A stretch of 64,000 nt of DNA from NCBI GenBank assembly GCA_030651375.1, contig JAUSFM010000003.1, positions 184,718 to 248,717 on the forward strand, given 5' to 3'. This DNA comes from Candidatus Woesearchaeota archaeon. GTDB taxonomy: Archaea; Nanobdellota; Nanobdellia; Woesearchaeales; UBA12501. Both the position numbers and the translations under genes were made by a program. Shown one piece after another: positions 16,359-37,974 of this stretch. The notes beneath the pieces were generated by a model, which saw only the letters and a program-made list of their open reading frames with translations, searched no databases and was not told the origin of the DNA. Numbering within the stretch: position 1 is the stretch's first letter; the number at the start of each line of letters is the position of its first letter.

Positions 16359-19300
16359 CTACGTCGTGCCTGCGCTGCTCGTCACTTCCCCATAGATCTC
16401 ATCCACGCGTTGGGCAACCAAGTTTCCTAATTCAGTGTAGATGCCGCGGGTAAACGCGTTGTCACATTCAGGAACGTGGTTGCATTGGGCGGCGTATGCT
16501 GAAACTTTTGCAGCAACCTCTGGTTTATGGGCTTGGACGCAGTCAACGGTGATGCCGTTGAGGCAGATAAGTTCCATATCGTTTGCAAATCGCTGGGCAA
16601 GTTGAGTACCATCAGCGGCAGTCGGGAGCGTCGTAACCGCCGGTGGCGCAAGTTTTTTCTCAAGCCGGAGATCGAGGAGCACATCAGAAATCGTGCCGAG
16701 AAGCGTGTCAACTTGAGCGTCATACGCGTCAGTGCACGAAGTGATAGCGGTACAGAGCCCGCGGTATTGGTCGTCTTGCGCAAGGACAAAGTCTTTATTG
16801 GTGTTGAGGCAGTCTTCGGTTATGCCGCCCGGACAAATTCTGCTGACACGCTCGACAAAGCTGCCGGCGTATTGCGCGCCGGCTTCTTCTGGTGATGCGA
16901 CAGCAGCGACAGTTGGTGAGGCAGCAGCATACTGTTCAACCGCCTGCAGCACTGTTGCCTTGAATGTGCACCAGTCAAACAGTGGCCCGGGATCTTCATG
17001 GCCACCATACACGCCGTTGGGTTGGCCAGCGGTAAATCCTTCGCAGGAATAGCCAGAGGTGCCGTCGACATACTGCGGCCTGCCGATGGTGCTGTGGAAA
17101 TAGATGTGGTCAATGCTGATGCCGTAGCGTACCATGATTTCGGCAACGGTTTTTGCCAGTGTTTTCATTTGCGCATCGGGGAATGGTTCCCAGTATCTGG
17201 TCCCGCCAGGATAGCTCCACGCTTTTCCGTGCACCATGTTGAGCTGGTTGCGCACATCAATACATCCAGAACAGGGACTGTTGCCGGCATAATTCGCGAG
17301 GTCGATGCCGATGGCTTGACTGTTAATTCCGGGCTTTGCGCAGGCAGGATTATTGGCGCTGCAGCCTGCATGATACGTGATAATATCTTCTTGTTCGATT
17401 TGGATCATCGATCCATCGCGGTCAATGATGAAGTGCGTACCTACTTTTTCTCCATCGCTGTTAACTCCTTTGAAAAAGATATTTTTGTACGTGTCATACG
17501 CTGACGAACTGCCTGCAGTGATGTGAATAACGATGCTGCTGATTTTGCTACTTGAACGTATGGGCCGATCTACCGTGTCAGCGCGCGCATGGAACGCACA
17601 ATCATCGTCAGGTCCGCAGGCAGTTGCCGGATTTAAGTCGACAGAACCATAGCTTCCGAGTGTCACGATCTGCGGCGTGAATGGCCCTGAAATAACCGGC
17701 CCAATAGTTCCGGGGGTTGGTGTTGATGCGCCGGTGCCTGGAGCAGATGGCCCCGGAGAAACTGGTGGAACACTTGCCGGCCGCTGCGCACAGAGCGTCG
17801 CTGCCTGCGCTGGATTTTTCACAAAGGAGTCTTTGTCAGACACACAGGCATACTGCGCGCTATTCGGCGCAGGGCAGGGCACGCAGAAATTTCCAAATCC
17901 GCATTCCATATCGGTTGCACCGCCGAGCTTGCCGTTGCAGTCGCAAATATTTTGGTTGTTTGACGGGTCAACATACAATCCGTTGTTTTTGTCGGTGGTG
18001 GTGCACGCCTCGTAGCCGATGCACGAACCGGATGCAGAGCAGTAGTTGAGCCCTTGCGCAATGCCGCAGCGGCTTGAGGTAGAGGTACCCACACAATTAC
18101 ATTCTTGGTTCACGAATGCGTTGGATGTGCATGCAGGCAATTCGCCGGTGGCAGTCACTTTACTGCATGCAACTGGAATGTCAATCGCGTCTGCGCCGGT
18201 GAATTCGAGCGCCTTGCCGCCGAACCGCGCGACCGCGTCGCCGGGAATGCAGGTGTCCGGTCCGGGAATGTCGTTTTCAAATCGGGTCTTGCACGGGCGA
18301 AGCTCAAGAGATAATTTCCAGTGCACGGGATTTTGTGCTGTGATGTCGTCGCACTGGGTTGCCGCTGCGCGCTGTTGTGCGAGGAAGGCGATGCCGTCAG
18401 CGTAGAGTTTTCCTGGAAGAACCGAACCGTACTCTGGCTGGATGCGAAGCCCATGGTACGAAATAGTGCCGAGCGCGCTGTCGAAGCGGTAGATATTATT
18501 TTTCAGCAGGGCGGTTGTCGACGGTGAAAGTCCGGACGCGGAAAGTTCTGCGTCAGTGCAGGGGATAGCACCCGGCACAATTTCAAACTGGTAATTTCTG
18601 CTTCCTTCAAGGAGTTTTGCAAGGTCATCGCTCAACGATGCGTGCTGCACACTGTAGCAGAACGCGTCTCTGCCTGCGGCATCTTTGGTCCGGAACATCA
18701 ACAGGCCAACCGCGAGATTTTCGCGTGAAGGGTAACTAACATCAATCGACGGAAGACTGCGCAGGGGAAGTTTATTTCCGCCAGCTTCTGCAAAGTCTGG
18801 ATTGGTGTACGCAACAGTGCGCGCGTATCCTGCGGCGCCGCCGTACATACCGCGAGTGATCATATCTTCAGTCAAGACGACGCTGGGAATGGTGAACCGG
18901 GAAACGCCATCTTCAACAATCGCGCGCACCGCCATGGAGCGCGCGGCAGATGACGCAGCAGACGAACTGGTGGGTGCTGAAATCGTGCTGCCTGCGTACC
19001 GTTCGAGTGGAATGACATTACCGTTCTGGTCGCGCAGTTGGTACATCAGGAAGTACGGCACCTGCTGGCCGGCAAGTGAAAGTGCCTGTGCAACGTCGGG
19101 ACGGATAGTGCCTGCACGGTTGTTCGGGCTGTATTTTTCAAGCTCGACATCGACGTCAATCGGCTCGTTAACCATGAACACCGATTTGACCGGACGGGGC
19201 CGTTTCAGGAACGCTGCGCGCCCGAGTTGGCCGGCTGCGATTTCGCATTGGTATCCAGAAAGTTTGAACTGGCAGGAAAGCGGCGGCTCATCGCCAATCT

Positions 19301-22300
19301 GCTGAATTTCGATTATTTTTTCTTCAGTCTGGAAATTTCCCTGATTGTTCCGCCACTGCCAGTATAAGCGAACACGGTCAAAGCGATACGGAAGTTCTGC
19401 CGGAACATATGCGTCCATGTCGCCGTATTCGCCGGCTGCAAGCACGCCGGTGCCCATGAAGTTGGTGATGGGATAGCGTTTCTCGCCAATCTCTGCGCAA
19501 TCGCATTTGTTGTTGGCAAAGCCGTAGATTTGTTTGCAGTTTGTCGGGCTTGCAGTGCAGATAAGTTCTGCGCCGTAGGTTATTTCAGAGCCGGCGACAA
19601 GTCCGCCGGCGAGATGGTAAATAAATCGCGCGTTGCCGGTCACGGGATTGCTCGTCATGAATCGCCGCGTTTGTTTTGGATACAAAAAGCCCTCGCTCGC
19701 AACCGGCACGCTGCCGATGCCCGTCAAGGCACCTTCGATGTCAAGGTCGAAATCGCCGGTGAATGCGTAGAAGCACGCCGAGTGAATCAGGCTGCGTTCA
19801 TTAAGGATACTGTACAAATTTGATTTTCCATACCGGTCGGAAATCGCCGTGTGCATGTGCTCGCCGGCAGAGGAAACTGCTTTGAAAAAGCCGCTGATGC
19901 CCTGAAGCCGACCGCCGCCACCGCCGCCGGAGCCCGCACCGTAGCGCTGGGCAAAACATTTGACTGCTTCAATCAGGAAATCGCACAGTGTTTCTGAAAA
20001 CGCGCGCCGGCACATGCCGGTACTTCCTTCGCCTGTCAACAAAATGGATTGGAAGCACTGCCGGAACTGGACAAAGACGCGCTGGATAAGTGCAATATAG
20101 GTGTTGATGGCGGGCAGGCACATGCACCGGATTGAATTGACAATGCTGGACGTCGGGTCAACAACATAGTCGCGGTTCACCCGCGGCACGAGTCCGTATT
20201 TTTCCGCTTCTGCGCGTGTCAGGATTTTTTGGGGGAATTCAGGAACAAATTGTTCAAGCCCGCGGTCGTAGCCGACCACTTCGCCGGTTGCCGGATCTTT
20301 TCGCTCTTTCCGGTCAGCGTAGAATGTGCCGAGTTCCCACTGGCCATCTGCAATAAGCCGGAACCAGCGGTCGCGGATGGTGACTCTTTTTTTGTTGAGT
20401 GTTGGCTGGCTGTTGATTGCTTCAGTCACTTCAATGGTGCCATCGCGGGCAGGAAGTGTGCCGCCGTAGCGCACGCTGCCGACTAAGGGACGGACTTCTT
20501 CTTGGCAAATCGTTGAAGCGGATTCAACCGCCTGTCCGATGGGCCCGCCGCAGCTTTGTGCAGCGCGGGAAGATTTGGTTGCAGTGTCATAGATACATTC
20601 AGATTGCCGAAGCTCGTTGGTAAACCAGCACGCGCTGTCCCATTGATTGATGTATTCCTGCGCGCATTGTTTTTCCGGACTTGCGCCGGGCACTGTTGGA
20701 ATTCCAGAAAACGGAGTGAGCATTGACGACGATGAAGAGGAAAGCAATTCATCAGCAGCGTCGTACACTACCCCTTCGTTCATGCCGGGATTGCCGCACT
20801 GCGCTTCTTTTGCGTCGGCATTGGTGCTGCCGAGATCATAGTGCGCAGGATTAGTGGTGCCATCAGACTGAAGCGCGCGTGTCTTTGCCATGCTTGCCTG
20901 CGTGATGTGCACGGCGAGTGTGGGCGCTGCGGGACAGTACACGCGGTCGCATATCCATTTCATGTAGCGTTCGTAGTCCTTGCGTGACTCGCGCGACTGT
21001 ATGCATTGCTGTTTTTCAGGGCTGTCAGCTGCGTCGGCGTAGACGCCGGTGCAATCCAGTTTTTCGATGACAAGCTTGTAGTAGTACGCGGCAAAGCTGC
21101 CGAGGCAGGTTACAAATGTGCCGATCAAGACAAATTTCAGGTACTGCAAAATCTGGTTGAGCGTTTTGATTGCATCATCAAAAAAATGGATGGAATCTTT
21201 GAGCAGCCATGTGGGGAGCCAGCGCTCGTCAAGCTCAAGGTCGAGTGTCGTGACGACGTCAGTGCAGTGGAGTTGGGTGCGCGTAATTTTTCCAGCTCGG
21301 CCACCATACACGCCTGATGTTGAGGAAGGAGAGAGTGGTTGTTGGTAGTTTTGATATGAAGGACGGCCAGACACGCCGGAGATATACTGCGTGCCCGGTG
21401 GCGCCTGCGCTCCTGATGTTGCGGGTATGCCAGTGCCCATGCCGCTGGCGTCTTCGTATTCAAACAGCACTTCCATCTGCAATGGAATTTTTATGAGCAA
21501 ATCTTTTTTCGCGCTGATGTCACTGAGATTTTTTTGGAGGTAGGGAAGCTGGTTGAAGTTCACGACAATGCCGCCGACGGTGTAGTCATCACTCCAGGTT
21601 ACCTGCACGGGCTGACGCACGAGTGTTTCCGGATCAAATGCATAATCACGGCGGGCTTCAGTGCTCTGATGTAGTACGCGGAAACGAGGCGGCGACAAAA
21701 TAGTTGCACGGTCTGCGGGGCCGCGCCATTTCAGCTTGACGTTGAAGCCGAGCTGGGCAATGCCGTTGCGGAGATGCGCGGGGATGACGGTCGATGGAGT
21801 AATTTTTGATTGCTCAACTTCCCAGAAACCGCCGCTGCCGCACTTCGCAAACACAACCGACACCGGACCAGAAGTGGAACTTCTTCCAAGATCGTCCACA
21901 ACAAAAATCTGCAGCCTATTTTCAAACGTGCTGCCAACATCGTATTGCCTGCCGAAGGTGTTTGCCGACGAATCAAGCGGTTGCTGGGGCAGGTACTGCG
22001 TCAGGTTGGTCTGCACAAATTGAGTGAGGAGCACATCAATTGAAAATCTGCCGTCGGGTCCAGCAACAGCAGTATATTCTTTTTGCGGCGCCGCGCGCAC
22101 TGAAAGGCTTTTTACCAGATCGAGCAAGCTTGTGCTCCACGCGGAATTGGGAGTCACTTCATCATTGACGGTCACAAACACAACCGCGCCGGGCGTTGCA
22201 TTGCCGCGCACGGTGACTTTTTGTGTGTAGCTCGGGTTGAGTTCATTGAGGTTGTGCGAAAAGAGCTGGGGAGCAGGGCCGAGAATTTGAATTGTTTTTG

Positions 22301-23150
22301 ATTCCTGTTTTGTGTTGCCTGCTTCGTCTGCAAACACGAAATGAACGTCTGTTTTTTTGCCGATGTTCTGCGCAACGCTTTCAGAAACGGGAACACGAAT
22401 ATCAAATGCTCCGGCAGGCAGCTGCTGTTCGCTGACCGCGCCGCTGACGGTGATGGTCGCGACGATAGTTTCTGATGTTGTTCCTTTCAGCGCCAGCACA
22501 CCTTCAACAATGCTGATGTGCTGATCAAGTGAAACAACCGGCGCCACGGTATCAACCGTGACGTCGAATTCCTTGATGGTTTTCTGCACTGAGGTTTGGT
22601 TTGTTGCTTCATCAACAATTTCTTCAGCGCGGCCTTCGGCGATAACGACGATATGCGAAAGCCCTTCGTTGAGCGTGAAGGTGAGCGCGAATGCTCCTGC
22701 GCTGTCGGCAATGGTGATTGTGTGATACGATGTCGCGTTAGTAATCGGGAGTGCCGGATTGAGGTACGTTTTTACACGAGTGTGTGAATTGGTGGTGCCC
22801 TGCACCGTGAGCGTGCGCTTGTTTGTTTTTTTCGGCAGCTCAAGATTTAGCAGCACGCCGTATGCGCCGCGCTCGGATGAAAAGTTTCCGCCAGCGCCTT
22901 CTGCATCACTCGCGCCGTAGGGTGATGTTGGCAATGTGTCGGAGTATGCAGAAGTAGTTGAGGAGGAAGATGATGAATCAGATACATTTGAAGGGGTAGA
23001 AGAGGAGGATGGAGGCGTGTGCTCGTAGGTTGGCTGCGCGTGCACCACGGGTATGAGAATGACTAGGTACATGAAAAATGCCGCAATAATCTGTACGGTG
23101 TGCGCTGATTTCAGGCTCAAGTTCATGCTCATCCTCTTTTGTGTAGCCAT
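16359..23150 (-). CDS. Giant secreted surface protein (2263 aa) with Ig-like N-terminal region, Cys-rich repeats and a C-proximal N-acetylmuramoyl-L-alanine amidase (Amidase_2/PGRP) domain
   Basis: Signal peptide IIAAFFMYLVILIPVVHAQP; amidase signatures IVIHITAG, THFIIDRDGSMIQ, YHAG, NSQAIGIDL, HIYFHS, EDPGPLFDW at about 16970..17560; duplicated ICPGGITEDC / ICLNGITVDC modules at C-terminus. Confidence 0.8.
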   Translation of the reverse strand: MATQKRMSMNLSLKSAHTVQIIAAFFMYLVILIPVVHAQPTYEHTPPSSSSTPSNVSDSSSSSSTTSAYSDTLPTSPYGASDAEGAGGNFSSERGAYGVLLNLELPKKTNKRTLTVQGTTNSHTRVKTYLNPALPITNATSYHTITIADSAGAFALTFTLNEGLSHIVVIAEGRAEEIVDEATNQTSVQKTIKEFDVTVDTVAPVVSLDQHISIVEGVLALKGTTSETIVATITVSGAVSEQQLPAGAFDIRVPVSESVAQNIGKKTDVHFVFADEAGNTKQESKTIQILGPAPQLFSHNLNELNPSYTQKVTVRGNATPGAVVFVTVNDEVTPNSAWSTSLLDLVKSLSVRAAPQKEYTAVAGPDGRFSIDVLLTQFVQTNLTQYLPQQPLDSSANTFGRQYDVGSTFENRLQIFVVDDLGRSSTSGPVSVVFAKCGSGGFWEVEQSKITPSTVIPAHLRNGIAQLGFNVKLKWRGPADRATILSPPRFRVLHQSTEARRDYAFDPETLVRQPVQVTWSDDYTVGGIVVNFNQLPYLQKNLSDISAKKDLLIKIPLQMEVLFEYEDASGMGTGIPATSGAQAPPGTQYISGVSGRPSYQNYQQPLSPSSTSGVYGGRAGKITRTQLHCTDVVTTLDLELDERWLPTWLLKDSIHFFDDAIKTLNQILQYLKFVLIGTFVTCLGSFAAYYYKLVIEKLDCTGVYADAADSPEKQQCIQSRESRKDYERYMKWICDRVYCPAAPTLAVHITQASMAKTRALQSDGTTNPAHYDLGSTNADAKEAQCGNPGMNEGVVYDAADELLSSSSSSMLTPFSGIPTVPGASPEKQCAQEYINQWDSACWFTNELRQSECIYDTATKSSRAAQSCGGPIGQAVESASTICQEEVRPLVGSVRYGGTLPARDGTIEVTEAINSQPTLNKKRVTIRDRWFRLIADGQWELGTFYADRKERKDPATGEVVGYDRGLEQFVPEFPQKILTRAEAEKYGLVPRVNRDYVVDPTSSIVNSIRCMCLPAINTYIALIQRVFVQFRQCFQSILLTGEGSTGMCRRAFSETLCDFLIEAVKCFAQRYGAGSGGGGGGRLQGISGFFKAVSSAGEHMHTAISDRYGKSNLYSILNERSLIHSACFYAFTGDFDLDIEGALTGIGSVPVASEGFLYPKQTRRFMTSNPVTGNARFIYHLAGGLVAGSEITYGAELICTASPTNCKQIYGFANNKCDCAEIGEKRYPITNFMGTGVLAAGEYGDMDAYVPAELPYRFDRVRLYWQWRNNQGNFQTEEKIIEIQQIGDEPPLSCQFKLSGYQCEIAAGQLGRAAFLKRPRPVKSVFMVNEPIDVDVELEKYSPNNRAGTIRPDVAQALSLAGQQVPYFLMYQLRDQNGNVIPLERYAGSTISAPTSSSAASSAARSMAVRAIVEDGVSRFTIPSVVLTEDMITRGMYGGAAGYARTVAYTNPDFAEAGGNKLPLRSLPSIDVSYPSRENLAVGLLMFRTKDAAGRDAFCYSVQHASLSDDLAKLLEGSRNYQFEIVPGAIPCTDAELSASGLSPSTTALLKNNIYRFDSALGTISYHGLRIQPEYGSVLPGKLYADGIAFLAQQRAAATQCDDITAQNPVHWKLSLELRPCKTRFENDIPGPDTCIPGDAVARFGGKALEFTGADAIDIPVACSKVTATGELPACTSNAFVNQECNCVGTSTSSRCGIAQGLNYCSASGSCIGYEACTTTDKNNGLYVDPSNNQNICDCNGKLGGATDMECGFGNFCVPCPAPNSAQYACVSDKDSFVKNPAQAATLCAQRPASVPPVSPGPSAPGTGASTPTPGTIGPVISGPFTPQIVTLGSYGSVDLNPATACGPDDDCAFHARADTVDRPIRSSSKISSIVIHITAGSSSAYDTYKNIFFKGVNSDGEKVGTHFIIDRDGSMIQIEQEDIITYHAGCSANNPACAKPGINSQAIGIDLANYAGNSPCSGCIDVRNQLNMVHGKAWSYPGGTRYWEPFPDAQMKTLAKTVAEIMVRYGISIDHIYFHSTIGRPQYVDGTSGYSCEGFTAGQPNGVYGGHEDPGPLFDWCTFKATVLQAVEQYAAASPTVAAVASPEEAGAQYAGSFVERVSRICPGGITEDCLNTNKDFVLAQDDQYRGLCTAITSCTDAYDAQVDTLLGTISDVLLDLRLEKKLAPPAVTTLPTAADGTQLAQRFANDMELICLNGITVDCVQAHKPEVAAKVSAYAAQCNHVPECDNAFTRGIYTELGNLVAQRVDEIYGEVTSSAGTT

Positions 23151-23180
23151 GGTTGTTTCGGTTTTGCCCTTTTTATGTTT

Positions 23181-25142
23181 TTATGTGGTAAAGTGAGGAA
23201 CGGCCTTGCTGGTGTGCGCAGGAGCACTGGTGTCTTCAATCATTTTTGCCTGGTCAATCATTGTTGCGGGATGCGGAACATATTCAAGCACGGTAAATTT
23301 CACGCCAGTTCCGGATTTAATGTCGCGCTTGGATGGTGTCCAGTTCATCTCGAGCCGACCGATGAGTTCATCGTTCCCATCAAGAAGCGCCAGTGTTACG
23401 TCGTAGGTAATGCCATTCGCATTAATGATATCAACCGTGCCGAGACGGCCGACACCTGCATCGCCGAGGTCTTCGGCAAGTTTTTTCCCATCCAGCGGGA
23501 AGCGGGTGACGCTGCTGAATGCCGTGACATCTTTTGTGGTGATGAACACGAGCGCTGTTTCGCCGCTGTGCAGGTTTTCTTCTTTGTTGACTTGTTTCTG
23601 GGTGATGGTGCGCTTGACGACGGAAACCGGCAGGTGGCGCACCGGAAGAAGGTTAACGTCAACGCTCTGCTGGCTCCGGTCGAGCTGTTGTTTGGTGGTG
23701 ACATAATCTTCGTGCTCGACAACAACACTGCCCGGTGTGCAGAATTTCGGAAGGAGTGTAGACAACCGCGCAATACCGCCGACTTGGTCAGTTCTGCCGA
23801 GCGGACAGCTGAACAGGTTGACGCAATCAAACGACATATTGGCGCCGTTGATGTACACGCCGCTTTCGTTGTCAAACGTGTAGATAGCGAATGGTTCCTC
23901 TTCCCGGTCGTTGCATACTTCGCGGTCGCGCTCGAAGACCGTGAAAACGCTGGTGTCGAGGTTTCGCCGCTCGCCCTGGTTGTGGTCAATTATCACCGGC
24001 AGGGCAAAGCGGAACACGTAGCCCGCGCCGTTGAATGCTTTGTCGTCGATAATCGTGAACATGAGCGGGTACTGGAGTGTGTAGGTGAAATGGTAGGCGC
24101 TGACGCAGAGGTACTTCAGATATTCCCGCGCACCGCGGCCGAAGCTTGCCTGCATCACATCGCCGACGCTGGGCGTGACGCGGAAGTCAAACGGCCAGTC
24201 TTTGCGGAACGTGACGCCGACGGAAAGGTCTCGATAATTTTTCTCGGATACTTTCCATTCAAAATGGTTGCGCGCGTACGGGTCATCGCGGGGAATCGGC
24301 GGCGTTGCCGTGTTTGAAACACGGATGCGAGGCAGGTTGTGGTAGAGCCGATTCTGTAGGGTGTTGAGCACTGCTTTTCTGCTCCACTGCGGCTTGTCGC
24401 AGGTGAACAACACATCGGTAAACGGAATGTCATCCGGCGGCCTGCCACTGCCGAGTGTCATGAGTTCCATCGTGAGGTCTTCCAAAAACAGTTTTTGGTC
24501 TTCGCTGAAAAAAATATCTTTTGCCAGCTGCGCTATGGTGCCGAGTTTGACGTCGAGCCGGCTGCCGAACGTGGAGAATGTAAAGGTCTGGCCGCCTGTT
24601 GTTGCGGTGAGGGGATAGGTAAATTTCACTGCTACCGCGTCGGTGCCTATGCTGGTTTCAGCACTCATCGTCGCAGGAAATGAAAACGTGAAAGCGCGTG
24701 TAAATTCTTCTGCGTTGAGTCCTTTGAGGCAGGTTTCCATCTGGCGGGTGATAAACGTGGAGAGCTCGGTTTGCATGAAGCCAATAGTTGGCGCGCGGTT
24801 TTCGCCGGCGAAGTACCACAGCGGCATCTTCAGGTCGCCCGCGGGGGTGAGGGAGAGAAAACTTTTTGGGTTGATGGCGATGCGCGGCGGCACAGAAATA
24901 AAGCCGCCTTGGCTGCCGAGCAGCATGATGCCTTGCAGCGCCTGCTCGTCAAGGCATTGTTGGACAAACGTATGGATGCTTTTGAATTCAGTGGGAATAT
25001 TTTTTTCATCGCCCACGCCCGCGAGGAGTTTTTCACGCGAAAAATAAAGCATAAATGCAACGCTAATTAGGAGAAGTATGCCAAGGATTATAAAAAACGT
25101 CACCTGCCCCTTTTTTTGCAACATCAGAGTAAAATGAGGCAT
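23181..25142 (-). CDS. Large type IV pilin-like protein with class III (archaeal prepilin) signal peptide
   Basis: N-terminus MLQKKGQVTFFIILGILLLISVAFMLYF: KG|Q cleavage motif plus hydrophobic helix; paralogous to 35074..37392. Confidence 0.65.
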   Translation of the reverse strand: MPHFTLMLQKKGQVTFFIILGILLLISVAFMLYFSREKLLAGVGDEKNIPTEFKSIHTFVQQCLDEQALQGIMLLGSQGGFISVPPRIAINPKSFLSLTPAGDLKMPLWYFAGENRAPTIGFMQTELSTFITRQMETCLKGLNAEEFTRAFTFSFPATMSAETSIGTDAVAVKFTYPLTATTGGQTFTFSTFGSRLDVKLGTIAQLAKDIFFSEDQKLFLEDLTMELMTLGSGRPPDDIPFTDVLFTCDKPQWSRKAVLNTLQNRLYHNLPRIRVSNTATPPIPRDDPYARNHFEWKVSEKNYRDLSVGVTFRKDWPFDFRVTPSVGDVMQASFGRGAREYLKYLCVSAYHFTYTLQYPLMFTIIDDKAFNGAGYVFRFALPVIIDHNQGERRNLDTSVFTVFERDREVCNDREEEPFAIYTFDNESGVYINGANMSFDCVNLFSCPLGRTDQVGGIARLSTLLPKFCTPGSVVVEHEDYVTTKQQLDRSQQSVDVNLLPVRHLPVSVVKRTITQKQVNKEENLHSGETALVFITTKDVTAFSSVTRFPLDGKKLAEDLGDAGVGRLGTVDIINANGITYDVTLALLDGNDELIGRLEMNWTPSKRDIKSGTGVKFTVLEYVPHPATMIDQAKMIEDTSAPAHTSKAVPHFTT

Positions 25143-25186
25143 TTCGCTTTATAAATATTATGACTGAAAACAGTGCGAAAATGGCG

Positions 25187-31386: not shown

Positions 31387-31425
31387 GCGTTGTCTCTTTT
31401 CTTTTTTGTCTCTTAAATGTTTTTC

Positions 31426-34400
31426 TTAATCACTCAACCCGCGCACTTCTTCCTGCGCAGCAGGCCCGGATACCGATGGTGATGCTGACTGTTGAGGAGC
31501 GCCTTGTTGAGTGAACCCGCGCGCGCCGCTGCTTCGTCGCCCGGCTGCCTCGTCAAAGCGCGGATCATTTTTGAGTTTGTTAAGGATATCTTCGCATGCA
31601 TCCGCGGGCGGATTGAACAGCCCTTTGACCGTGTCGATGATATTTCTGATGCTGTCAATAACGCGGAGCAAGTTGAATGGAAGGAAAATAAAATTACAAA
31701 CAGTACGAGTATTGCCTTCTCCAACCGGTGAGATAATAACATATTTACACGCAATAGTCATTCCAGTAGTTGCCAAAGTCATGGGATTGGTAATGAATTG
31801 TTTCATGATCGCACCGATTTGTTTTTGGATGTGCGCAAAGGGAATGAGCGCAAGGAGTTCTCCGGTTTCCACTTTGCAGGTTTCATACTGATAGACGCGG
31901 TCACAGGTGCTTTTCGGCATGCCTTGGCCGACTTGGTTGTAGAGGCAACTAATGTAGCTGCATTCAATTACTCTGCGGCGTTGGAGATTTTCAAAAATGC
32001 CAGGAATGCACATTGTAAGGTAGCTTAGGTAGAGACTGCCCCGCGGGTTTGCCCATGCAGTCCATTGCGCGGCTGTCTGTTTACGTGGGTCAAGAGAAGA
32101 TGCTTCTTTAGCTGCTTCTTTGAACGTACCACCAAGCTGATCAAGGGATGGCTGTTCGAGCCCGAATTTTTTAAATAATGCGCCGGTTGGCGTCCAGGTG
32201 CAGGTAAGAAAATCACAGGCATCTTGGGCATATGATTTTTGGATAGTATCAGTAAATTTGTTTATCGTGCCGCTGATTGAGCCGAGCGCTACCTCTGCGG
32301 GTTTGAGGATTGGAAAGGCATCAGACAAAACAACCATAACACCGTGAACACCGGCAATTGCCAGGCCAACAGAAGTCAGCCCCTGCAAGATACTGCAAAT
32401 GCTCGTCAAAAAGGTAATAACTTTGTTGACCTTCGTCACAAATGTGCCCATGAGATTGTTTTGCTCGACGTGGTCAACAATTTCATCCCACACGCCGTCG
32501 CTGATGTCCTTAACATTGCCGAGCGGAATTTCCAGAACTGCGGTTGCTTTAGTGACGCCGGATACTTTGTTGCCGTTCTTGCTCATGATGGAAAATTCGC
32601 AGGTCACGACAAACTTTGTTTTTGTTTCAGGAATTTTTCCCGGCCGCAGGTTGAAACGGAGCTTGGCAGTATTTGGTGAGCTTGTGCTGAACATGACTTT
32701 GGTTGCGTCCTGCGCAAAGAAGCCGGCGCTATAGTCTTCACCGGAACAGCTCGTCACATCAACGGCAACCGGTGCAGTGCCCGGTGGTGTTCCTGCGTCA
32801 GGATTTATCTGCACATCAAAGAACACGGCGGTGGTTGCAACCGCAGCGCCGCGGGCGTCAACAATAGGCGAGATAAGAATTGGATTGAGCGTATATTTGG
32901 AAGGCGCAAGCCCTTCAAGCACTGTTTTTCCAAGCCAGTCCTGTGGCGCAAGCTCGTGCACATGGCCCTGCGCATCGGTGTACACAAGGAATGGATCCTC
33001 GACGGTAACCGCTGTTTTGTCGCCGTGTACCAGTGCATTGCCGGCAATATCTTTGGTGCCGGTGAAGGTGGCGCGGAAATCTTTGTTCGTGCCAAGATTA
33101 AATATTTCCCAGTCGCACTGCCAGAGGTTCGGCAGGTTTTCGTTCACGCCGTATCCAGTCATGGCAACAAGCGCGCCGGTTCCGGCGTCAAATGTGGGAC
33201 CAGCAGATTCAGCAGCAGGCGTGGTTGGTTGAGCAGACGATGGAACAGGAGCAGCTGGTACTGCTGTTTGCACTGGCGCAAACGGCTGGCATTTCAGTGC
33301 GGGTTTTGGCGTGCTTGGATTTTCTGCATCAAACGGAATGACCGCAACGGCGTTGTGCGTGCCTGCATCATCGGCCATGGCGATATTTTCTTGAACAATG
33401 AGGCGGAGAATCGCGGTGCCGCCTGCAGCAAGCACCGGCGTGTTTGACGACGAGATAATTTGAGCCTTGACCAAACGGGGAGCATCGTGGTCAACCAGAA
33501 TATCAGCACTGCCGGGCTCCATTTGATTGTCAGCAAGGTCTTTGCCGCGCACCGTGACTAAAACTCGATCTGCCTGCACGCCGCTGATGGTGGTGTTGCA
33601 GAGGAACGCGCCTGCTTCCGGCTGGATGCATGCCTCGGGGTTTTTGTTGTTGATGAGTACGGTTTCTTTTGAAACACCGGCGCCGGTTTCGTCAATGACT
33701 GCAATGAGCGTGTTGCTTGCCGGCCCCAGCACGGGCACGCCGCCAAACGCGCGCGTCGCGGTTATCTCGCGCACTGCCGGCGGCACATCATCGATTTGGA
33801 AGGTGAGCGTTTTGGTTGCGTCGAGATGATTTTTCGCTGCGTCTTCCGCAGAGAGGAAAAGGTTTCGCGTTTTGTCGCCGTCAGGATTCAGCTGCGCATT
33901 GCCAACACAGTCAAAGCGGTGATCGGTTGATTGTTCATCGCGCTGTTCCGGAACGCGCTCTGCGCAGTTCAGCACCACGCTCGGTTCGCCGGCATTGAAT
34001 GAGGCAACTGATGCATTGACACGGCCAATCAAATGAGTGTGGGTGAGGATGGTTGCAACGACTTTTACCTCGACAACACGGTTTGCTACAAAGGAAAGTT
34101 CTTTGACAAGCCCGGCGTCCATTGCGGTGAAGTTTTCTATTTCAGGCGCACGATTGTCTTTGGTGATGTTCACGCAATTTTGTGCCGTGGGAGTGAGCGT
34201 GCCCTGCGCATTGACATAAGAAGAATGAATGTTGCCAAACGCATCCTGCGGCACGGCGCATATCTGGGTGGAAGCGCCATTTGGAAGCGCATCAGCGTTC
34301 AATGAAACAACGGTGTTGTTTGCTGCGCACGCACTGCCGGCGGTTGGCCGCGGCTCAACGTCCTGCGCAACCAGTTCTTGTCCATCACGAGTAAAGAGTT

Positions 34401-35040
34401 TTATTTTTGCAACGCCAACACAGCCCTGCTGGCTCGTGCCGGTGGTGTCAACCGCTGCAACCGTCAGATTAACCGTACCGCTGGAAACACCAGTTGCTGT
34501 CGGGGTTATGTGCTGAACCGTCGGACCGAGTTTGTCGACGAGAATACCGGGGAAAACAGAGTACTGGTTGCCGTTTTGCTGGGCAACGGGGCGTGCAGCG
34601 TCGCAGGATTGGGGAAAGTCTCTTCTGCCGTCAACATTGGCAAGGTTGACACACACGCTGTATCGGTCTTTGTCGTCAATTTTGTTGATGGGCAATGTTA
34701 CGCTACATTCGTACGGGTTTGTCGTGGTACATTGAGAAAAGCGCGCAGTGCCGGGTGAGTTTCTCGTCACCCCGTCAGTATCATTCATCACTTCCAAAAA
34801 GGTGGGAAGCACGGGCGAGGGAGAATCAATTTTGACGCGGATGGTGGTGGCGTCGGTTTCTTTGCGGAATGACTCTTTGCCGTCTCCTCCGCTGATGTGC
34901 ACTTCTTGGAAGGAGATTGCAAAGACATTTGCCGTGTAAAAAGGAAGCGTGAGAATAAGGACGCACATGAAGATGGCTAAGAATCGCTCGAACTGGCCGC
35001 AGCCTTTTTTCCCCGAATAGGGTTGCATGGGTGGTTTCAT
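31426..35040 (-). CDS. Giant secreted surface protein (1204 aa), hypothetical
   Basis: N-terminal signal LAIFMCVLILTLPFYTANVFA; Ig-like beta-rich body; Cys-containing C-terminal domain. Confidence 0.7.
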   Translation of the reverse strand: MKPPMQPYSGKKGCGQFERFLAIFMCVLILTLPFYTANVFAISFQEVHISGGDGKESFRKETDATTIRVKIDSPSPVLPTFLEVMNDTDGVTRNSPGTARFSQCTTTNPYECSVTLPINKIDDKDRYSVCVNLANVDGRRDFPQSCDAARPVAQQNGNQYSVFPGILVDKLGPTVQHITPTATGVSSGTVNLTVAAVDTTGTSQQGCVGVAKIKLFTRDGQELVAQDVEPRPTAGSACAANNTVVSLNADALPNGASTQICAVPQDAFGNIHSSYVNAQGTLTPTAQNCVNITKDNRAPEIENFTAMDAGLVKELSFVANRVVEVKVVATILTHTHLIGRVNASVASFNAGEPSVVLNCAERVPEQRDEQSTDHRFDCVGNAQLNPDGDKTRNLFLSAEDAAKNHLDATKTLTFQIDDVPPAVREITATRAFGGVPVLGPASNTLIAVIDETGAGVSKETVLINNKNPEACIQPEAGAFLCNTTISGVQADRVLVTVRGKDLADNQMEPGSADILVDHDAPRLVKAQIISSSNTPVLAAGGTAILRLIVQENIAMADDAGTHNAVAVIPFDAENPSTPKPALKCQPFAPVQTAVPAAPVPSSAQPTTPAAESAGPTFDAGTGALVAMTGYGVNENLPNLWQCDWEIFNLGTNKDFRATFTGTKDIAGNALVHGDKTAVTVEDPFLVYTDAQGHVHELAPQDWLGKTVLEGLAPSKYTLNPILISPIVDARGAAVATTAVFFDVQINPDAGTPPGTAPVAVDVTSCSGEDYSAGFFAQDATKVMFSTSSPNTAKLRFNLRPGKIPETKTKFVVTCEFSIMSKNGNKVSGVTKATAVLEIPLGNVKDISDGVWDEIVDHVEQNNLMGTFVTKVNKVITFLTSICSILQGLTSVGLAIAGVHGVMVVLSDAFPILKPAEVALGSISGTINKFTDTIQKSYAQDACDFLTCTWTPTGALFKKFGLEQPSLDQLGGTFKEAAKEASSLDPRKQTAAQWTAWANPRGSLYLSYLTMCIPGIFENLQRRRVIECSYISCLYNQVGQGMPKSTCDRVYQYETCKVETGELLALIPFAHIQKQIGAIMKQFITNPMTLATTGMTIACKYVIISPVGEGNTRTVCNFIFLPFNLLRVIDSIRNIIDTVKGLFNPPADACEDILNKLKNDPRFDEAAGRRSSGARGFTQQGAPQQSASPSVSGPAAQEEVRGLSD

Positions 35041-35073
35041 GGGTGTTCTTTTTTTATAGTTTATTGTAGTCCA

Positions 35074-37392
35074 TCATCGTGGTTGCAGGAGCTGGCGAAC
35101 ATTCTGATTGTTGCTGGCGTCTTTTTGCATCACATCGTACATCTGGAGGTCAGTCACCATGCGTTCACGTGCAGATCTTGACGCAGTTGCCATAATAAGG
35201 GTGGTGCCGACGACACGCGTATCAGGCACATCGCGCATGTTCAGCACGAGCGTTGATAACGTCAGCTCGTTCGGTGAAGTAAGCATCTGCGGAGTGATGT
35301 CAATGGTTGCAGTAATGACCCCTTCACTAAAGGGCGCGTTGAGTTTTGTTTCATCCATGGGTGTGGGAACAGCACAACCGATAGTTACATCTTCAACACC
35401 GATCGCTTCAAGCACGCCGCTAAACACTCCACCGGGGCCTGAAAACGTGAGTGCCTCGCCGCAACAGTCGGGACATGAGGGGATGCGCATTGATTCAAAG
35501 AGGAGCGTGCTGAACGTGACGGTATATCGTCCGGGAGCAAGTTGTACTGGCGCGCGTTGGGTGCCTGAAACTTGGGCCAACGCAGAATACGGCGCTTCTC
35601 CGTCTGCAGCCACCCGATCAAACGTGACAATTACTTTTTCCGTTTCCAGCAAATCTTTTTGTGTTCGTGAAAGTTCCCATAATGATTCTGGCTTAGTTTT
35701 CGCATTGCGCACGGCAGCAATCCTACCTTCGTTTTTGTCATAGGTGTATTTTTTGACGCGAATAGTTTTCTCGATAAGGGGCAGGAGTTTTACGTCTTTG
35801 GCCACCTGTTTGGTAAGCGAAGAAGTCAGTACCACGCTCGCGCCTAAATAGCCGGGCGCAGAAACTTTAAGATCACCAGAAGCGCGCGGAAATTTCGAGG
35901 TGAGTGTACCATCAGATTTCGATACGCCCATTGAACACGACGTACCGGAATTGAACTGTACTTCGGCGTTCGGTACGCTGCGCCCCGTCGCTGCATCAGT
36001 CACTTTAACGGTCACCGGCGCTGATGTTTTTTGATTTTCATTGCAGAGCAGTGAAAAATCATCAAAGCCATGAATCGGCGACGATGACTTGTATGCTGAA
36101 GTCAACGGCTCATTGTCCCGCACATTCGCTTCCAGCGCAAAGAGGAAATCGTAGCCCTTGTTGTTGAACGCCGTTGAATCAGTGACCTGCGTGAGAATAG
36201 GAACAGAAATATCGTAGGGTGTCTGGTACGTGCGCAGTGTTGTCGGAAGGTCGCTAAGAAGCATCTGCACAATGGAAGCGCCGGGCAGTGAAACTTCATT
36301 GGTCGGGCCAATAGAATCTCCTTTCACGACGTCAAAATAGGATTTCCAGGACGGCAGGTAGTTGAATGTAACGGCGTACCGCTTCGCGTCGCTATCCGGC
36401 CCCGACATATCAAGACTGCTAAGATATGAATACAATCCACGGCGAACCGGATCGTTCAAAATAGTTGGATCTGCCTGTTCAAACGGAATATAATTTTTTG
36501 TTCCCTTGACTGGCACTTTTTGAATTGTGTAGCTCACAATGGATTCAACCGTCGGTTTCAGCGCTGCTTCGCTCCATGTTTTTTTTGTGCCACCGTGCTG
36601 GCTTGCGGAAAATGGCGGCAGGTCGTTATCGAGGCCCGCGCGCGCAGACAGCGCAAGAATAATCACTTTTTCAAACGATTGTCCTTGAGTGATTTTCGAC
36701 GTCAACTGTTGGGCAAACGCAAGGAGTTTTCCCAAGGCAACATCGTGCGTTGCGCGAAAATTTTTCAGGTCATACACCAGATTTTGTTTGGTAACGTGCA
36801 CCGCCAAGGTTACATCCACCACCACGCTGTTCGCCGTGAGAATAGTTGATGCCTTGGGAACACCTGCGGTCGAAACAGTGAGGCCCTGCGATGCAAACGA
36901 GGAGAAATCAAGGCAGCCCTGCAGATTTTTTTCAACATAGGCATTGATTTGGTTTTGAATGTCATCCTGGCTCGGCACCTGATCCTTGAATGAAATTCTG
37001 GACGGAGCGTTATTGGGAGAAGCAAGGTGATGCCAGTAGGGAATGTACCAGTTTGTGCCAAACGTCAGCGCTTCAGAATCAGTTGGGCGTTCATTTGTCG
37101 TGTCAAACTGAAACGCGCGCGGGCTAAAGTCGGTAGACGTCGGATCAATGTAGCCTGCATGCCCGCCCAGTTCAGTGATTGCTTTTTTTGAGATGGTTTC
37201 AACACACTGGGTGATAAATGAATTCAGGGGAGCAAGCTCAAACGGCACTTCCTGCACCAGAGCAGGCGCTTCCTGCGGCGCAAAGGTTTTTTGTTCGCGG
37301 GCTGAAAACAAGAAAATTGCTGCAACAAGAAGGAGTACGCCAATAATTATGAATATGGTGACTTGTCCTCTTTTTGAATGCACGCGATCCAC
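35074..37392 (-). CDS. Large type IV pilin-like protein with class III signal peptide
   Basis: N-terminus MDRVHSKRGQVTIFIIIGVLLLVAAIFLF; homologous to 23181..25142 (FVQQCLDEQ vs FITQCVETI; PLWYF vs NWYIPYW). Confidence 0.65.
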   Translation of the reverse strand: MDRVHSKRGQVTIFIIIGVLLLVAAIFLFSAREQKTFAPQEAPALVQEVPFELAPLNSFITQCVETISKKAITELGGHAGYIDPTSTDFSPRAFQFDTTNERPTDSEALTFGTNWYIPYWHHLASPNNAPSRISFKDQVPSQDDIQNQINAYVEKNLQGCLDFSSFASQGLTVSTAGVPKASTILTANSVVVDVTLAVHVTKQNLVYDLKNFRATHDVALGKLLAFAQQLTSKITQGQSFEKVIILALSARAGLDNDLPPFSASQHGGTKKTWSEAALKPTVESIVSYTIQKVPVKGTKNYIPFEQADPTILNDPVRRGLYSYLSSLDMSGPDSDAKRYAVTFNYLPSWKSYFDVVKGDSIGPTNEVSLPGASIVQMLLSDLPTTLRTYQTPYDISVPILTQVTDSTAFNNKGYDFLFALEANVRDNEPLTSAYKSSSPIHGFDDFSLLCNENQKTSAPVTVKVTDAATGRSVPNAEVQFNSGTSCSMGVSKSDGTLTSKFPRASGDLKVSAPGYLGASVVLTSSLTKQVAKDVKLLPLIEKTIRVKKYTYDKNEGRIAAVRNAKTKPESLWELSRTQKDLLETEKVIVTFDRVAADGEAPYSALAQVSGTQRAPVQLAPGRYTVTFSTLLFESMRIPSCPDCCGEALTFSGPGGVFSGVLEAIGVEDVTIGCAVPTPMDETKLNAPFSEGVITATIDITPQMLTSPNELTLSTLVLNMRDVPDTRVVGTTLIMATASRSARERMVTDLQMYDVMQKDASNNQNVRQLLQPR

Positions 37393-37464
37393 CTATCCCC
37401 TTTTTAACAATTTTATAAATACTACACTTTTTCCTTTTTAAATGTTGTGATAATGGGAGTGTGA

Positions 37465-37974
37465 TTATTTAAAAAGTTTCAGCACCGTAATGCTGATGGC
37501 AAGCAGCAGCACCAGCAGGCAGAGCAGGATATTCACAAACAGCCGGTCGGCAACGCCGAAATGGTCCGTGTAATACGGGTTGGTGAAGTATATTTTTTTT
37601 TGGAACACGTACCAGAGCACCGTGCCGTTCATCAAAAAAGAAAAGAGGGATAGCAGTAAAAATAATTCAAACGGCACCAGCTGAAATTGGAGAAGGTAAT
37701 AATGAAGCACCAAGGAATATACGAGCACAAAGGAAAAACACACCAGCGATGCAGCCCACACCCATGGTTTGCGCGCGAAGAAACCATACAGCACGGCGAC
37801 GAGCCAAACAACCAACACGAGTTCGGCAGCAGGAAGCAGTGGAATTGCACCAAGGGTTGTTGGCGCAGCAGCCATGTAAGCAAGCGTCACAATGCCTGCG
37901 ATAATCAGCAGTGCAGTGTATTCCAACAGGCCGCGCAGGCCTGCGTGGAGCTTTTGAGGAGGAGATTTTTGCAT
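37465..37974 (-). CDS. Small polytopic membrane protein (4 TM)
   Basis: 169 aa; first gene of the minus-strand locus; AT-rich TATA-like stretch (tttataaatttt) about 30 nt upstream. Confidence 0.5.
   Translation of the reverse strand: MQKSPPQKLHAGLRGLLEYTALLIIAGIVTLAYMAAAPTTLGAIPLLPAAELVLVVWLVAVLYGFFARKPWVWAASLVCFSFVLVYSLVLHYYLLQFQLVPFELFLLLSLFSFLMNGTVLWYVFQKKIYFTNPYYTDHFGVADRLFVNILLCLLVLLLAISITVLKLFK

Follow-up and report, generated by a model that had tools for sequence, protein, structure and literature searches.

Two proposed anchor-plus-giant modules, one with a predicted wall amidase, in a surface-protein locus of Woesearchaeota

Large surface proteins in described systems

For large extracellular murein transglycosylase proteins of Woesearchaeota and Pacearchaeota, binding or degradation of bacterial walls has been proposed (PMC8204110, PMC9723730). 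Bacteria can also be killed by peptidoglycan hydrolases of archaea (PMC12352652). Such proteins, fam00969 (Castelle et al. 2021, PMC8204110; see also Vigneron et al. 2022, PMC9723730), share several features with g2263, one of the giants of the locus analysed here. Both come from the same lineage, both are very large (fam00969 up to ~3000 aa) and predicted to be extracellular with a bacterial-type peptidoglycan hydrolase domain, and the role proposed for them, binding or degrading bacterial walls, is alike. However, the enzyme of g2263 is an Amidase_2 domain, a type directed at the MurNAc-L-Ala amide bond, whereas that of fam00969 is an SLT/GH23 glycosidase. No SLT/GH23 lytic transglycosylase domain was found in g2263 in Pfam and NCBIfam searches, in which Amidase_2 was the sole enzymatic domain detected. 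Pairing with a class-III-signal protein, a two-module locus, and a Cys-rich domain are not described for fam00969 in the portions of the two papers considered (PMC8204110, PMC9723730). In our best reading, the amidase-armed module adds to a theme already known in Woesearchaeota, that of large murein hydrolase proteins. The locus is less unprecedented than the sequence-only reading had rated it, since large surface proteins with murein hydrolase domains were already described in this lineage (PMC8204110, PMC9723730). No homologous characterised system had been evident to that reading, and none was found in Pfam, NCBIfam, PHROG, and PDB searches.

The class-III-signal (prepilin-like) proteins of the locus, g772 and g653, resemble the Sulfolobus bindosome substrates (PMC3047682) in their large non-pilin ectodomains, prepilin-type signal, and A24 processing, which is predicted for g772 and g653. 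The Sulfolobus proteins are retained at the surface by an N-terminal hydrophobic helix and linker, as part of the envelope rather than as a long fibre (PMC3047682), and g772 and g653 would be retained likewise. In contrast to them, g772 and g653 do not resemble substrate-binding proteins in sequence or fold, the locus is flanked by neither ABC transporter nor Bas assembly genes, and the partners are giant Ig-domain proteins. SlaA and SlaB are likewise encoded by adjacent genes, for a membrane-anchored beta-sandwich stalk and a large outer protein, but have no sequence homology to the gene pair described here. The anchor of g772 is N-terminal and of class-III type, whereas that of SlaB is a C-terminal transmembrane helix; N-glycosylation sequons are depleted in g772 and g1784, whereas SlaA/SlaB are heavily N-glycosylated; and the present locus has extra modules and hydrolase domains.

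Among episymbiotic/predatory CPR bacteria, Vampirococcus lugosii (PMC8080830) is, as here, a small-genome episymbiont with several membrane or surface proteins of >1000 aa. Its giants are found alongside secreted peptidoglycan hydrolases, and a role in recognising and attacking the host has been ascribed to them (PMC8080830). However, it belongs to another domain of life and is linked to the present locus by no shown homology; its hydrolases are encoded as proteins of their own, and a conserved pairing of anchor and giant genes is not described for it (PMC8080830).

Architecture and conservation of the locus

We analysed a 64-kb stretch of DNA (the window). Its proteins match, at 100% identity, proteins encoded on a 262-kb contig of a Candidatus Woesearchaeota MAG; the organism is thus a DPANN archaeon, and the earlier reading had likewise taken it for an archaeon. 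Seven minus-strand genes spaced 14–72 nt apart had been described, and the ORF listing of the window returned all seven intact, with exactly the same coordinates and sizes and with gaps of 72, 33, 39, 14, 44, and 30 nt from g169 to g2263. Orthologues in independent assemblies are of near-identical length (2262, 2260, 2266, and 2141 aa for g2263; 1203, 1205, 1202, and 1229 aa for g1204), which indicates that the ORFs are neither chance nor frameshift artefacts. The predicted location of the proteins is extracytoplasmic or in the membrane. The features ascribed to the giants were also recovered: signal or anchor sequences, Pro/Ala-rich linkers, repeated Cys modules (detected as 4-Cys repeats), and Ig-like regions, the last as a weak Ca_tandemer match and as Big_3_3/Big_13 matches in at most 7 of the 40 giant-A family members scanned.

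The seven genes are not unrelated: they form two copies of a module that is based on a gene pair very widespread in Woesearchaeota, and each of the two modules comprises a membrane protein, a class-III-signal protein, and a giant. Module A, which we take to be the widespread ancestral form, contains g169 (37465–37974; 169 aa), a small polytopic membrane protein with ~4–5 hydrophobic helices; g772 (35074–37392; 772 aa, GTG start), class-III-signal protein A; and g1204 (31426–35040; 1204 aa), giant A. It is associated with g1784 (26032–31386; 1784 aa), a signal-anchored protein. Module B, taken to be a divergent paralogue of module A, contains g276 (25187–26017; 276 aa, TTG start), a polytopic membrane protein with 5–7 helices; g653 (23181–25142; 653 aa), class-III-signal protein B; and g2263 (16359–23150; 2263 aa), giant B. 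Orthologues of g169 (53–74% identity), which had no family match in Pfam or NCBIfam, were found at the equivalent position in loci L001/L006 and L005. Orthologues of g276 were present in L002 and L005, and weaker similarity was detected to a 287-aa protein at the equivalent position in L014 (blastp 2.7e-5) and to a 281-aa 7-TM protein in L011 (hhalign P 0.001).

The gene pair was conserved across related loci. When fetched loci were scanned with family HMMs, a giant-A gene abutted a class-III-signal gene in 13 of the 14 giant-A-domain loci with readable flanks: L001/L006, L002, L003, L004 (both pairs), L005, L007, L009, L011, L012, L013, L014, L015, and, in reversed order, L010. The exception was L008, in which the pilin-like gene lies two genes downstream of the giant-A gene. 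A synteny check had been proposed earlier, and the six-gene order was kept in L002 (757-1229-1107-269-650-2266, the last with Amidase_2) and L014 (MetRS-729-1142-586-287-655-at least 1699). The order is preserved in a relative only ~25–30% identical. The last L014 protein (at least 1699 aa) is 28–31% identical to g2263. In several loci there are at least two divergent modules, and in L011 an S9/S15-type alpha/beta hydrolase gene follows the giant gene. In related loci the pair sits among housekeeping genes (EF-2, NDK, and MetRS). Because it is widespread and located among such genes, it may belong to the general make-up of the envelope and not be a specialised weapon.

The giants, their partners, and the predicted amidase

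Giant A (g1204) consists of a Sec-type signal (..TANVFA before and I after the cleavage site), Ig-like repeats, a Pro-rich linker, and a conserved C-terminal domain (31546–32559, minus strand; aa 828–1165). This domain is predicted to be all-helical with ~10 conserved Cys, and its core motif is SLxLSxxTLCxPGI...C.Y..CL....G.P...C......C...GEIF.LIPF. Homologues of g1204 were found (P0010–P0016), and the family HMM scored 345 bits on g1204 itself. A profile search of 1.84 billion representatives recovered 1197 clusters at E ≤ 1e-3, of which 921 also passed E ≤ 1e-10, and the domain (~335–340 aa) had no match in Pfam, NCBIfam, PHROGs, or the PDB. As judged from these profiles, it defines a large unannotated family, new here. 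The named members sampled were annotated as 'hypothetical protein' of Woesearchaeota/Nanoarchaeota, apart from one Bacteroidota-labelled record, which was taken to be mis-binned.

Each of the ~10 conserved Cys is shared by at least 84% of the family, as would suit an extracytoplasmic disulfide-bonded domain. The hydrophobic helix of the domain has a family mean of only ~1.1 on the Kyte-Doolittle scale; giant A therefore lacks a conserved membrane anchor of its own. In g1204, aa 877–912 form a Gly/Ala-rich hydrophobic stretch of ~36 residues within the predicted all-helical domain. N-glycosylation sequons are not depleted in the g1204 family. Structure prediction, suggested earlier as a check, gave a low-confidence AlphaFold model for this domain (pLDDT 50).

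The two pilin-like proteins had been said to start with K(R/K)GQ and a hydrophobic helix, and both indeed have conserved class-III-type leaders. In each, a short basic leader precedes ~20 hydrophobic residues: SKRG is followed by QVTIFIIIGVLLLVAAIFLF in g772 and QKKG by QVTFFIILGILLLISVAFML in g653, the full leaders being MDRVHSKRG and MPHFTLMLQKKG, each ahead of Q. The two proteins are paralogues (blastp 4e-29), and leader residues K7 and Q10 are invariant in 10 sequences. The leader K(K/R)(G/A)Q(V/I)TxF is retained down to ~23–26% identity, and the motif is present in most of the more distant loci. Orthologues of g653 lie directly before the g2263 orthologue in L002 and L014. Beyond its hydrophobic helix, g772 has a ~400-aa alpha/beta domain, which had no PDB match, and tandem beta-sandwich domains; no sequons were found in g772 or in any of its six close orthologues. 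In the AlphaFold model of g772, a helix (8–36) and a low-confidence linker (31–42) are followed by separate globular domains. Because this linker parts the helix from the globular part, the modelled N-terminal region seems closer to a membrane tether than to the core of a pilin.

An archaeal prepilin/preflagellin-type peptidase had been placed ~10 kb from the locus (48180–49064, plus strand), and this assignment was upheld by a Peptidase_A24 match (E 1.1e-13) and by the presence of both catalytic Asp contexts (YTDIK and GGGDSK). The ORF also matched Arc_PepC_II (E 1.4e-4), at 22.8 bits, under the Pfam cut-off of 29.9. It is the candidate processing enzyme for g772 and g653, and may be the cognate one.

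The signal-anchored protein g1784 contains Pro/Ala-rich linkers, repeated '(V/I)DxxGNVY' motifs, and, by internal repeat analysis, about five 4-Cys modules of the form C-x9-C-x9-10-C-x5-C. Orthologues occupy the equivalent position in L002, L005, and L014, in all of which jackhmmer detected its conserved C-terminal domain (26035–27189, minus strand; aa 1400–1784). It has no N-x-S/T sequons, against 10.5 expected, and its orthologues have 0, 0, and 1. The giant-A family member P0118 of L010 ends in this same domain (hhalign probability 95%, E 3.6e-8), a Rosetta-stone fusion that links giant A to the g1784 domain.

Giant B (g2263) comprises a Sec signal (..PVVHA, then Q), an Ig-like region, a version of the giant-A core motif that is divergent and expanded, an EGF-like Cys-rich region, Amidase_2, and two C-terminal 4-Cys modules, and an identical protein is labelled N-acetylmuramoyl-L-alanine amidase at NCBI. 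Its core Cys motif (19971–20177, minus strand; aa 992–1060) reads DPTSSIVNSIRCMCLPAI...C...C...C. The giant-A family HMM matched g2263 in two colinear pieces (E 1.7e-5, 13.7 bits; hmmsearch of 11 sequences) and its L014 orthologue with an i-E of 3.8e-7. Direct comparison of the g2263 core with the giant-A domain gave an hhalign P of 0.0018, or 5.6e-4 with the L014 orthologue added, at a probability of 15–30%. This weak similarity is suggestive, not conclusive, of a core motif that is probably homologous to the giant-A domain core.

The Amidase_2 domain (17085–17549, minus strand; aa 1868–2022) matched PF01510 at 67.4 bits (cut-off 26; E 2e-18), and the region also matched PHROG amidase/endolysin families. 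With the periplasmic/secreted zinc amidases AmiD and AmpDh2 and phage T7-lysozyme-type endolysins, all of the Amidase_2 type, it shares His/His/Asp zinc motifs and DPGPLF. The g2263 domain could be aligned with AmiD and AmpDh2, with HS..(H) and (E/D)DPGPLF among the aligned motifs, but DPGPLF (aa 2052–2058) lies past a ~25-aa insertion relative to these enzymes. The zinc ligands H1876 (IVIHIT), assigned by motif, and H2019 (YFHS) and D2053 (EDPGPLF vs DDPGPLF), assigned by alignment to AmiD/AmpDh2, are invariant in five orthologues. PF01510 was found in all five, so the domain was demonstrated in the close clade only. At the position of the catalytic Glu, g2263 has Asp (IGID vs IGIE in AmpDh2), and two residues before the DPG Asp it has His in place of the transition-state Lys (GGHEDPG vs G-R-K-V-DPG). 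Because of these two replacements, the domain might bind rather than cleave its substrate, and the predicted amidase activity is plausible, not assured. The catalytic domain is followed by two 4-Cys modules (16419–16838, minus strand; aa 2105–2244; internal repeat E 2.5e-7), which end in C-x5-C-xxA(F/Y), like some g1784 modules, a likeness by motif only. This arrangement of small C-terminal repeats recalls endolysins, but here the domain forms part of an archaeal surface protein of 2263 aa, close to the C-terminal end, and is only ~24% identical to its single phage match. The earlier idea of cell-wall attack is directly supported by this domain, which had been missed.

Proposed mechanism and competing explanations

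We give an even chance to the reading that the locus encodes a Woesearchaeota-specific surface complex built from two copies of one anchor-plus-giant module, in which the module B giant carries a wall amidase; the gene block is probably a cell-surface device to hold on to, or open, bacteria. The 650–790-aa class-III-signal protein of each module would probably be cleaved by the A24 peptidase and remain tethered through its N-terminal hydrophobic helix. It might then hold the Sec-exported giant, with the conserved Cys-rich helical domain as the docking part, a guess because that domain could not be modelled (pLDDT 50). The giant would point its Ig-like domains outward, and in module B it would add a zinc N-acetylmuramoyl-L-alanine amidase and small 4-Cys modules. 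We know of no archaeon with murein, so the amidase would most plausibly act on, or bind, the peptidoglycan of a contacted bacterium (host, prey, or competitor). Anchoring of the giant by its partner, surface exposure, enzymatic activity, and a bacterial target are all parts that we only infer.

Part of these data would also fit an envelope structure. It is possible, though somewhat unlikely, that module A, perhaps the whole locus, is the Woesearchaeal envelope, a two-component S-layer-like coat to which the amidase paralogue is an add-on; by analogy with Sulfolobales SlaB/SlaA, the class-III-signal protein would then be the membrane stalk and the giant the canopy. The extreme spread of the pair in the lineage (1197 clusters), its place beside the EF-2, NDK, and MetRS genes, and its make-up of a smaller anchored protein and a ~1000–1350-aa protein are consistent with such a coat, as is the typically lineage-specific, unannotated nature of S-layer proteins (PMC5744192). 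SlaB was also the top Foldseek PDB match of the g772 model (E 2e-6), but this match covers generic beta-sandwich repeats only (TM-score 0.10–0.16). Neither the seven proteins nor 40 giant-A family members matched known S-layer families in Pfam or NCBIfam; the near absence of sequons from the g772 and g1784 families is atypical of archaeal S-layer glycoproteins; and multiple divergent modules with attached hydrolases (Amidase_2; the L011 alpha/beta hydrolase) are unexpected for a simple lattice protein.

The extracellular fibre favoured by the sequence-only reading was not supported. No type-IV-filament ATPase (PilB/ArlI) or platform (PilC/ArlJ) genes were found among the scanned ORFs of the window, nor any small major pilin or small class-III-signal ORF, and the called genes of 13 related loci included no filament ATPase, platform, or small-pilin genes. 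The g772 model is, moreover, tether-like, with a predicted N-terminal helix of only ~29 residues that runs into a flexible Pro-rich linker and does not pack on a pilin sheet. These observations make it quite unlikely that g772 and g653 are modular pilins in or at the tip of a filament, with the machinery encoded elsewhere and the giants as tip adhesins, in the manner of PilY1 with minor pilins or the modular pilins of Streptococcus sanguinis. Such an arrangement would account for the invariant K and Q flanking the predicted cleavage site and for the A24 peptidase 10 kb away; type-IV-filament systems, some with PilY-like adhesins, occur in DPANN/Nanoarchaeota (bioRxiv 10.64898/2026.04.22.720090), and episymbiotic Saccharibacteria attach through type IV pili (PMC9894109). 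However, class-III signals are also used by non-filament surface proteins, such as the sugar-binding proteins of Sulfolobus (PMC3047682). A further idea, which we consider very improbable, is that the Cys-rich helical domain with its hydrophobic hairpin is a pore or fusion device that enters the partner membrane after the amidase has acted; insertion would give the archaeon access to the host cytoplasm. The hydrophobic stretch of g1204 and the co-located wall hydrolase would suit it, and 'vampiristic' Woesearchaeota with pore-forming toxins have been proposed (PMC9723730). But this idea draws on composition, the helix is only moderately hydrophobic as a family average, the model is unreliable, and Pfam and PDB searches gave no similarity to known pore-formers or fusogens.

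A known archaellum or S-layer operon would have countered the sequence-only reading, but the window has no archaellum or pilus ATPase or platform genes, and no known S-layer family matched. Of that reading, the extracytoplasmic or membrane proteins, class-III signals, wall attack, and an archaeal (DPANN) source were supported, the fibre was not, and the weapon role may have been overstated. Beyond the two-module surface complex that we prefer, it is conceivable, but rather doubtful, that the anchor-plus-giant pair is an unrecognised Woesearchaeota-wide apparatus for docking on bacteria, with the amidase and possibly a membrane-active domain acquired in this clade. If true, this would be machinery for cross-domain (archaeon-on-bacterium) episymbiosis or predation, without a homologue among characterised adhesion, secretion, or pilus systems.

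To our knowledge, Woesearchaeota have neither been cultured nor been assigned hosts. Giant surface proteins with bacterial-wall hydrolases are among the few genomic clues that some Woesearchaeota live on bacteria rather than archaea. Such a hydrolase is now linked to a two-gene surface module that is conserved, very widespread, and unannotated, and to a six- to seven-gene locus. This provides concrete targets: the new domain family (~1200 clusters), the predicted interaction of anchor and giant, and a candidate amidase. Through them it may become easier to recognise which structure forms the cell envelope, or makes contact with the host, in a major archaeal lineage.

The locus and its surroundings

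We located seven minus-strand ORFs, named here by protein length in amino acids, exactly where the sequence-only reading had placed them: g169 (37465-37974), g772 (35074-37392), g1204 (31426-35040), g1784 (26032-31386), g276 (25187-26017), g653 (23181-25142), and g2263 (16359-23150), separated in that order by gaps of 72, 33, 39, 14, 44, and 30 nt. The K(R/K)GQ sequence and hydrophobic helix on which g772 and g653 had been called pilin-like are visible at both N-termini. Hydrophobicity analysis bore out the signal or anchor sequences attributed to the three giants (g1204, g1784, and g2263) and revealed several hydrophobic helices in each of g169 and g276. The proposed cognate peptidase (48180-49064) is indeed an archaeal A24 peptidase, with a Peptidase_A24 match (E 1.1e-13) and both aspartate motifs; its match to Arc_PepC_II fell under the family cut-off. 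The locus ORFs are real genes: the identical proteins have been annotated on a 262-kb contig of a Candidatus Woesearchaeota MAG, and orthologues in other assemblies have almost equal lengths.

A gene for a 485-aa DUF2779 protein (14858-16315, minus strand; E 1.3e-43) immediately follows g2263 in the same orientation, after a 43-nt gap. Two archaeal EF-2 paralogues (38068-40314 and 41094-43238, both minus strand; 50% identical by blastp) enclose a plus-strand ORF of 250 aa (40319-41071) without a family match; in two related loci (L001 and L005), too, the upstream neighbour is an EF-2 gene. Known systems were rejected as follows: an archaellum or type IV pilus operon, whose ATPase and platform genes are absent here; a Gram-positive-type conjugation system, as there are no VirB4 or VirD4 ATPases; and known S-layer families, with zero matches. 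No pilus genes were found among the genes called on ~4 kb upstream of the window start, taken from an exact-match Logan contig.

Elsewhere in the window, positions ~6000-14000 form a low-GC island (33-36% vs ~48-53% elsewhere), seemingly of defence or mobile character, that encodes an HNH endonuclease (6272-6961), a Schlafen-group-3-like helicase (7405-9327), a MazG-like protein (9329-9970), and a nucleotidyltransferase/HEPN pair (12729-13809). A plus-strand gene (51063-53285) encodes a 740-aa bacterial-type sigma-70 factor with regions 1.2, 2, 3, and 4 and a weak C-terminal HTH match; such genes (fam00359) are reported to be common in Woesearchaeota (PMC8204110). The 498-aa product of 55726-57222 (plus strand) matches the thymidine/AMP phosphorylase families (Glycos_trans_3N, Glycos_transf_3, PYNP_C), in keeping with descriptions of nucleotide-salvage metabolism in small DPANN genomes.

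The amidase giant and the giant-A domain family

Searches of the locus proteins against Pfam, NCBIfam, and PHROGs gave one solid match, Amidase_2 (N-acetylmuramoyl-L-alanine amidase) at residues 1868-2022 of g2263 (67.4 bits vs a cut-off of 26). The alignment of this domain to AmiD and AmpDh2 takes in the second zinc histidine and, after an insertion of ~25 residues, the (D/E)DPGPLF motif. H1876, H2019, and D2053 are invariant among five orthologues. Since an Asp occupies the position aligned with the catalytic Glu and a His stands for Lys ahead of the DPG motif, catalysis by this domain is, on sequence grounds, plausible rather than certain. A tblastn search of phage genomes with the amidase returned a single match, 24% identical, and a recent phage origin is therefore not evident.

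The g1204 family is best conserved in its last ~340 residues, referred to here as the giant-A domain. A profile of this C-terminal region, run over 1.84 billion representative proteins, recovered 1197 clusters at E ≤ 1e-3 and, at the stricter threshold of E ≤ 1e-10, 921. Members are mostly 1000-1350 aa long, with the domain at the C-terminus. The named members sampled are all recorded as 'hypothetical protein' from Woesearchaeota or Nanoarchaeota, save one labelled Bacteroidota that we take to be mis-binned, and Pfam found nothing beyond Ig-like domains in a minority of 40 diverse members. The domain has ~10 conserved cysteines and the motif SLxLSxxTLCxPGI...C.Y..CL...G.P...C...C..GEIF.LIPF. 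Its single hydrophobic helix is only moderately hydrophobic (~1.1 averaged across the family) and is therefore not regarded as a conserved membrane anchor. Structure prediction of this part of g1204, which the sequence-only reading had suggested, was unproductive: the AlphaFold2 model, built on a 6-sequence alignment, reached a mean pLDDT of 50 and was unfit for fold search.

g2263 probably holds a copy of the giant-A core motif that has diverged and been expanded by insertions, as indicated, short of proof, by profile comparisons: hmmsearch found the motif in two colinear pieces (E 1.7e-5), hhalign against the giant-A domain gave P 0.0018, improving to 5.6e-4, and the orthologue in the distant locus L014 matched the family HMM at i-E 3.8e-7. 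Sub-region comparisons were required, as whole-protein profiles of the g1204 and g2263 families shared signal peptides only. Self-BLAST revealed internal repeats only after each protein had been divided into windows. Two 4-Cys modules at the end of g2263 share a closing C-x5-C-xxA(F/Y) pattern with modules of g1784.

A conserved gene pair within two modules

The two class-III-signal proteins, g772 and g653, are paralogous to each other (blastp, E 4e-29), and most of the corresponding genes in the related loci encode the conserved K(K/R)(G/A)Q(V/I)T leader. The AlphaFold2 model of g772 (mean pLDDT 74) comprises an N-terminal helix (residues 8-36), a low-confidence linker, an alpha/beta region of ~400 residues, and several beta-sandwich domains; fold searches matched the beta-sandwiches alone (transthyretin-like and CnaB-like domains and the SlaB S-layer stalk). 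N-glycosylation sequons (N-x-S/T) are strikingly scarce: they number 0 in g772 (5.5 expected) and in 6/6 close orthologues (P0002-P0007), and 0 in g1784 (10.5 expected), with 0, 0, and 1 in its orthologues from L002, L005, and L014. Orthologues of g2263 are likewise sequon-depleted, unlike the g1204 family.

Each related locus retrieved was searched with HMMs for the class-III-signal family and the giant-A domain. Scans of genome and metagenome collections contributed 4 and 6 loci, respectively, a low yield that reflected reliance on short degenerate patterns. In 13 of the 14 domain-bearing loci with enough flanking DNA to judge, which are few and not phylogenetically independent, the giant-A gene is adjacent to a class-III-signal gene (L001/L006, L002, L003, L004 twice, L005, L007, L009, L011, L012, L013, L014, L015, and, in reverse order, with the class-III-signal gene after the giant, L010). 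L008 is the exception: its pilin-like gene is found two genes downstream of giant A, past two small genes. The pair's neighbourhood is a housekeeping one, formed by EF-2 and NDK or by methionyl-tRNA synthetase.

The synthetase gene (with tRNA_bind) lies within ~5 kb upstream of the pair in L003, L008, L010, L011, L013, and L014, from distant Woesearchaeal lineages, and EF-2/NDK genes take its place within the window's own clade. L008, from a Black Sea Woesearchaeote, also encodes a 1942-aa beta-helix surface protein (706-6534; NosD, Beta_helix, Big_7, CARDB) beside the synthetase and just upstream of the giant-A gene. The MAGs of L006, L007, and L009, which carry this Woesearchaeal module, were deposited as 'uncultured Methanosarcinales archaeon', apparently a generic or incorrect taxonomic label.

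The locus consists of two modules, g169, g772, and g1204 with the associated g1784 (module A) and g276, g653, and g2263 (module B), and the whole gene order is old. Of the seven-gene synteny proposed as a check, the order of six genes was found in L002, which reads 757-1229-1107-269-650-2266 (Amidase_2) in protein lengths, and in the much more distant L014, which reads MetRS-729-1142-586-287-655 followed by a protein of at least 1699 aa. In L014, the 586-aa protein matches the C-terminal domain of g1784 (4e-7), the 287-aa protein matches g276 (2.7e-5), and the last is 28-31% identical to g2263. Beyond the close clade, conservation of the small membrane proteins g169 and g276 is at most weakly hinted at, and for g276 alone.

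g1784 itself combines Pro/Ala-rich linkers, ~5 4-Cys modules, and a conserved C-terminal domain. In P0118, the giant of L010 (10001-14098), the giant-A domain sits mid-protein (aa 551-863), and the C-terminal end (~last 155 aa) is homologous to that g1784 domain (hhalign 95%, E 3.6e-8), a fusion which argues that the two domains act together. At g1784's position after giant A, L011 instead encodes a 1025-aa protein (14059-17136) with a C-terminal S9/S15/DLH-type alpha/beta hydrolase, and thus a degradative enzyme in place of g1784; the next gene encodes a 7-TM protein with weak similarity to g276.

A candidate surface complex

The most economical reading, to which we give an even chance, is that of a surface complex: the class-III-signal protein would serve as its membrane tether and the giant as its exposed part. 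The complex would be duplicated in this locus, with the second giant bearing a peptidoglycan amidase. Archaea are without murein, and the g2263 amidase therefore points to contact with bacteria. An S-layer-like envelope would suit both the ubiquity of the gene pair and its housekeeping context; it is nevertheless unlikely, given the lack of a match to any S-layer family, the sequon depletion, and the attached hydrolases.

The leader sequences could also belong to the tip complex of a type IV filament. We consider this improbable, as no assembly genes were seen in the window or ~4 kb upstream and the N-terminal helix appears tether-like in the model. A membrane-active device, suggested by composition, is very improbable.

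Several features of the locus have published precedents. Woesearchaeota and Pacearchaeota are described as encoding extracellular proteins of very large size that bear murein transglycosylase domains (PMC8204110, PMC9723730), and archaeal peptidoglycan hydrolases can kill bacteria (PMC12352652). Class-III signals occur on non-pilin surface proteins in the Sulfolobus bindosome (PMC3047682), and giant surface proteins are known in episymbionts (PMC8080830). New, as far as we could find, are the Amidase_2 form of the Woesearchaeal giant, the giant-A domain family (~1200 clusters) together with its near-obligate pairing to a class-III-signal protein, the conserved two-module arrangement of the locus, and the fusion that links the g1784 domain. 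Our reading of the locus extends the published observations on giant murein hydrolases and archaeal peptidoglycan hydrolases.
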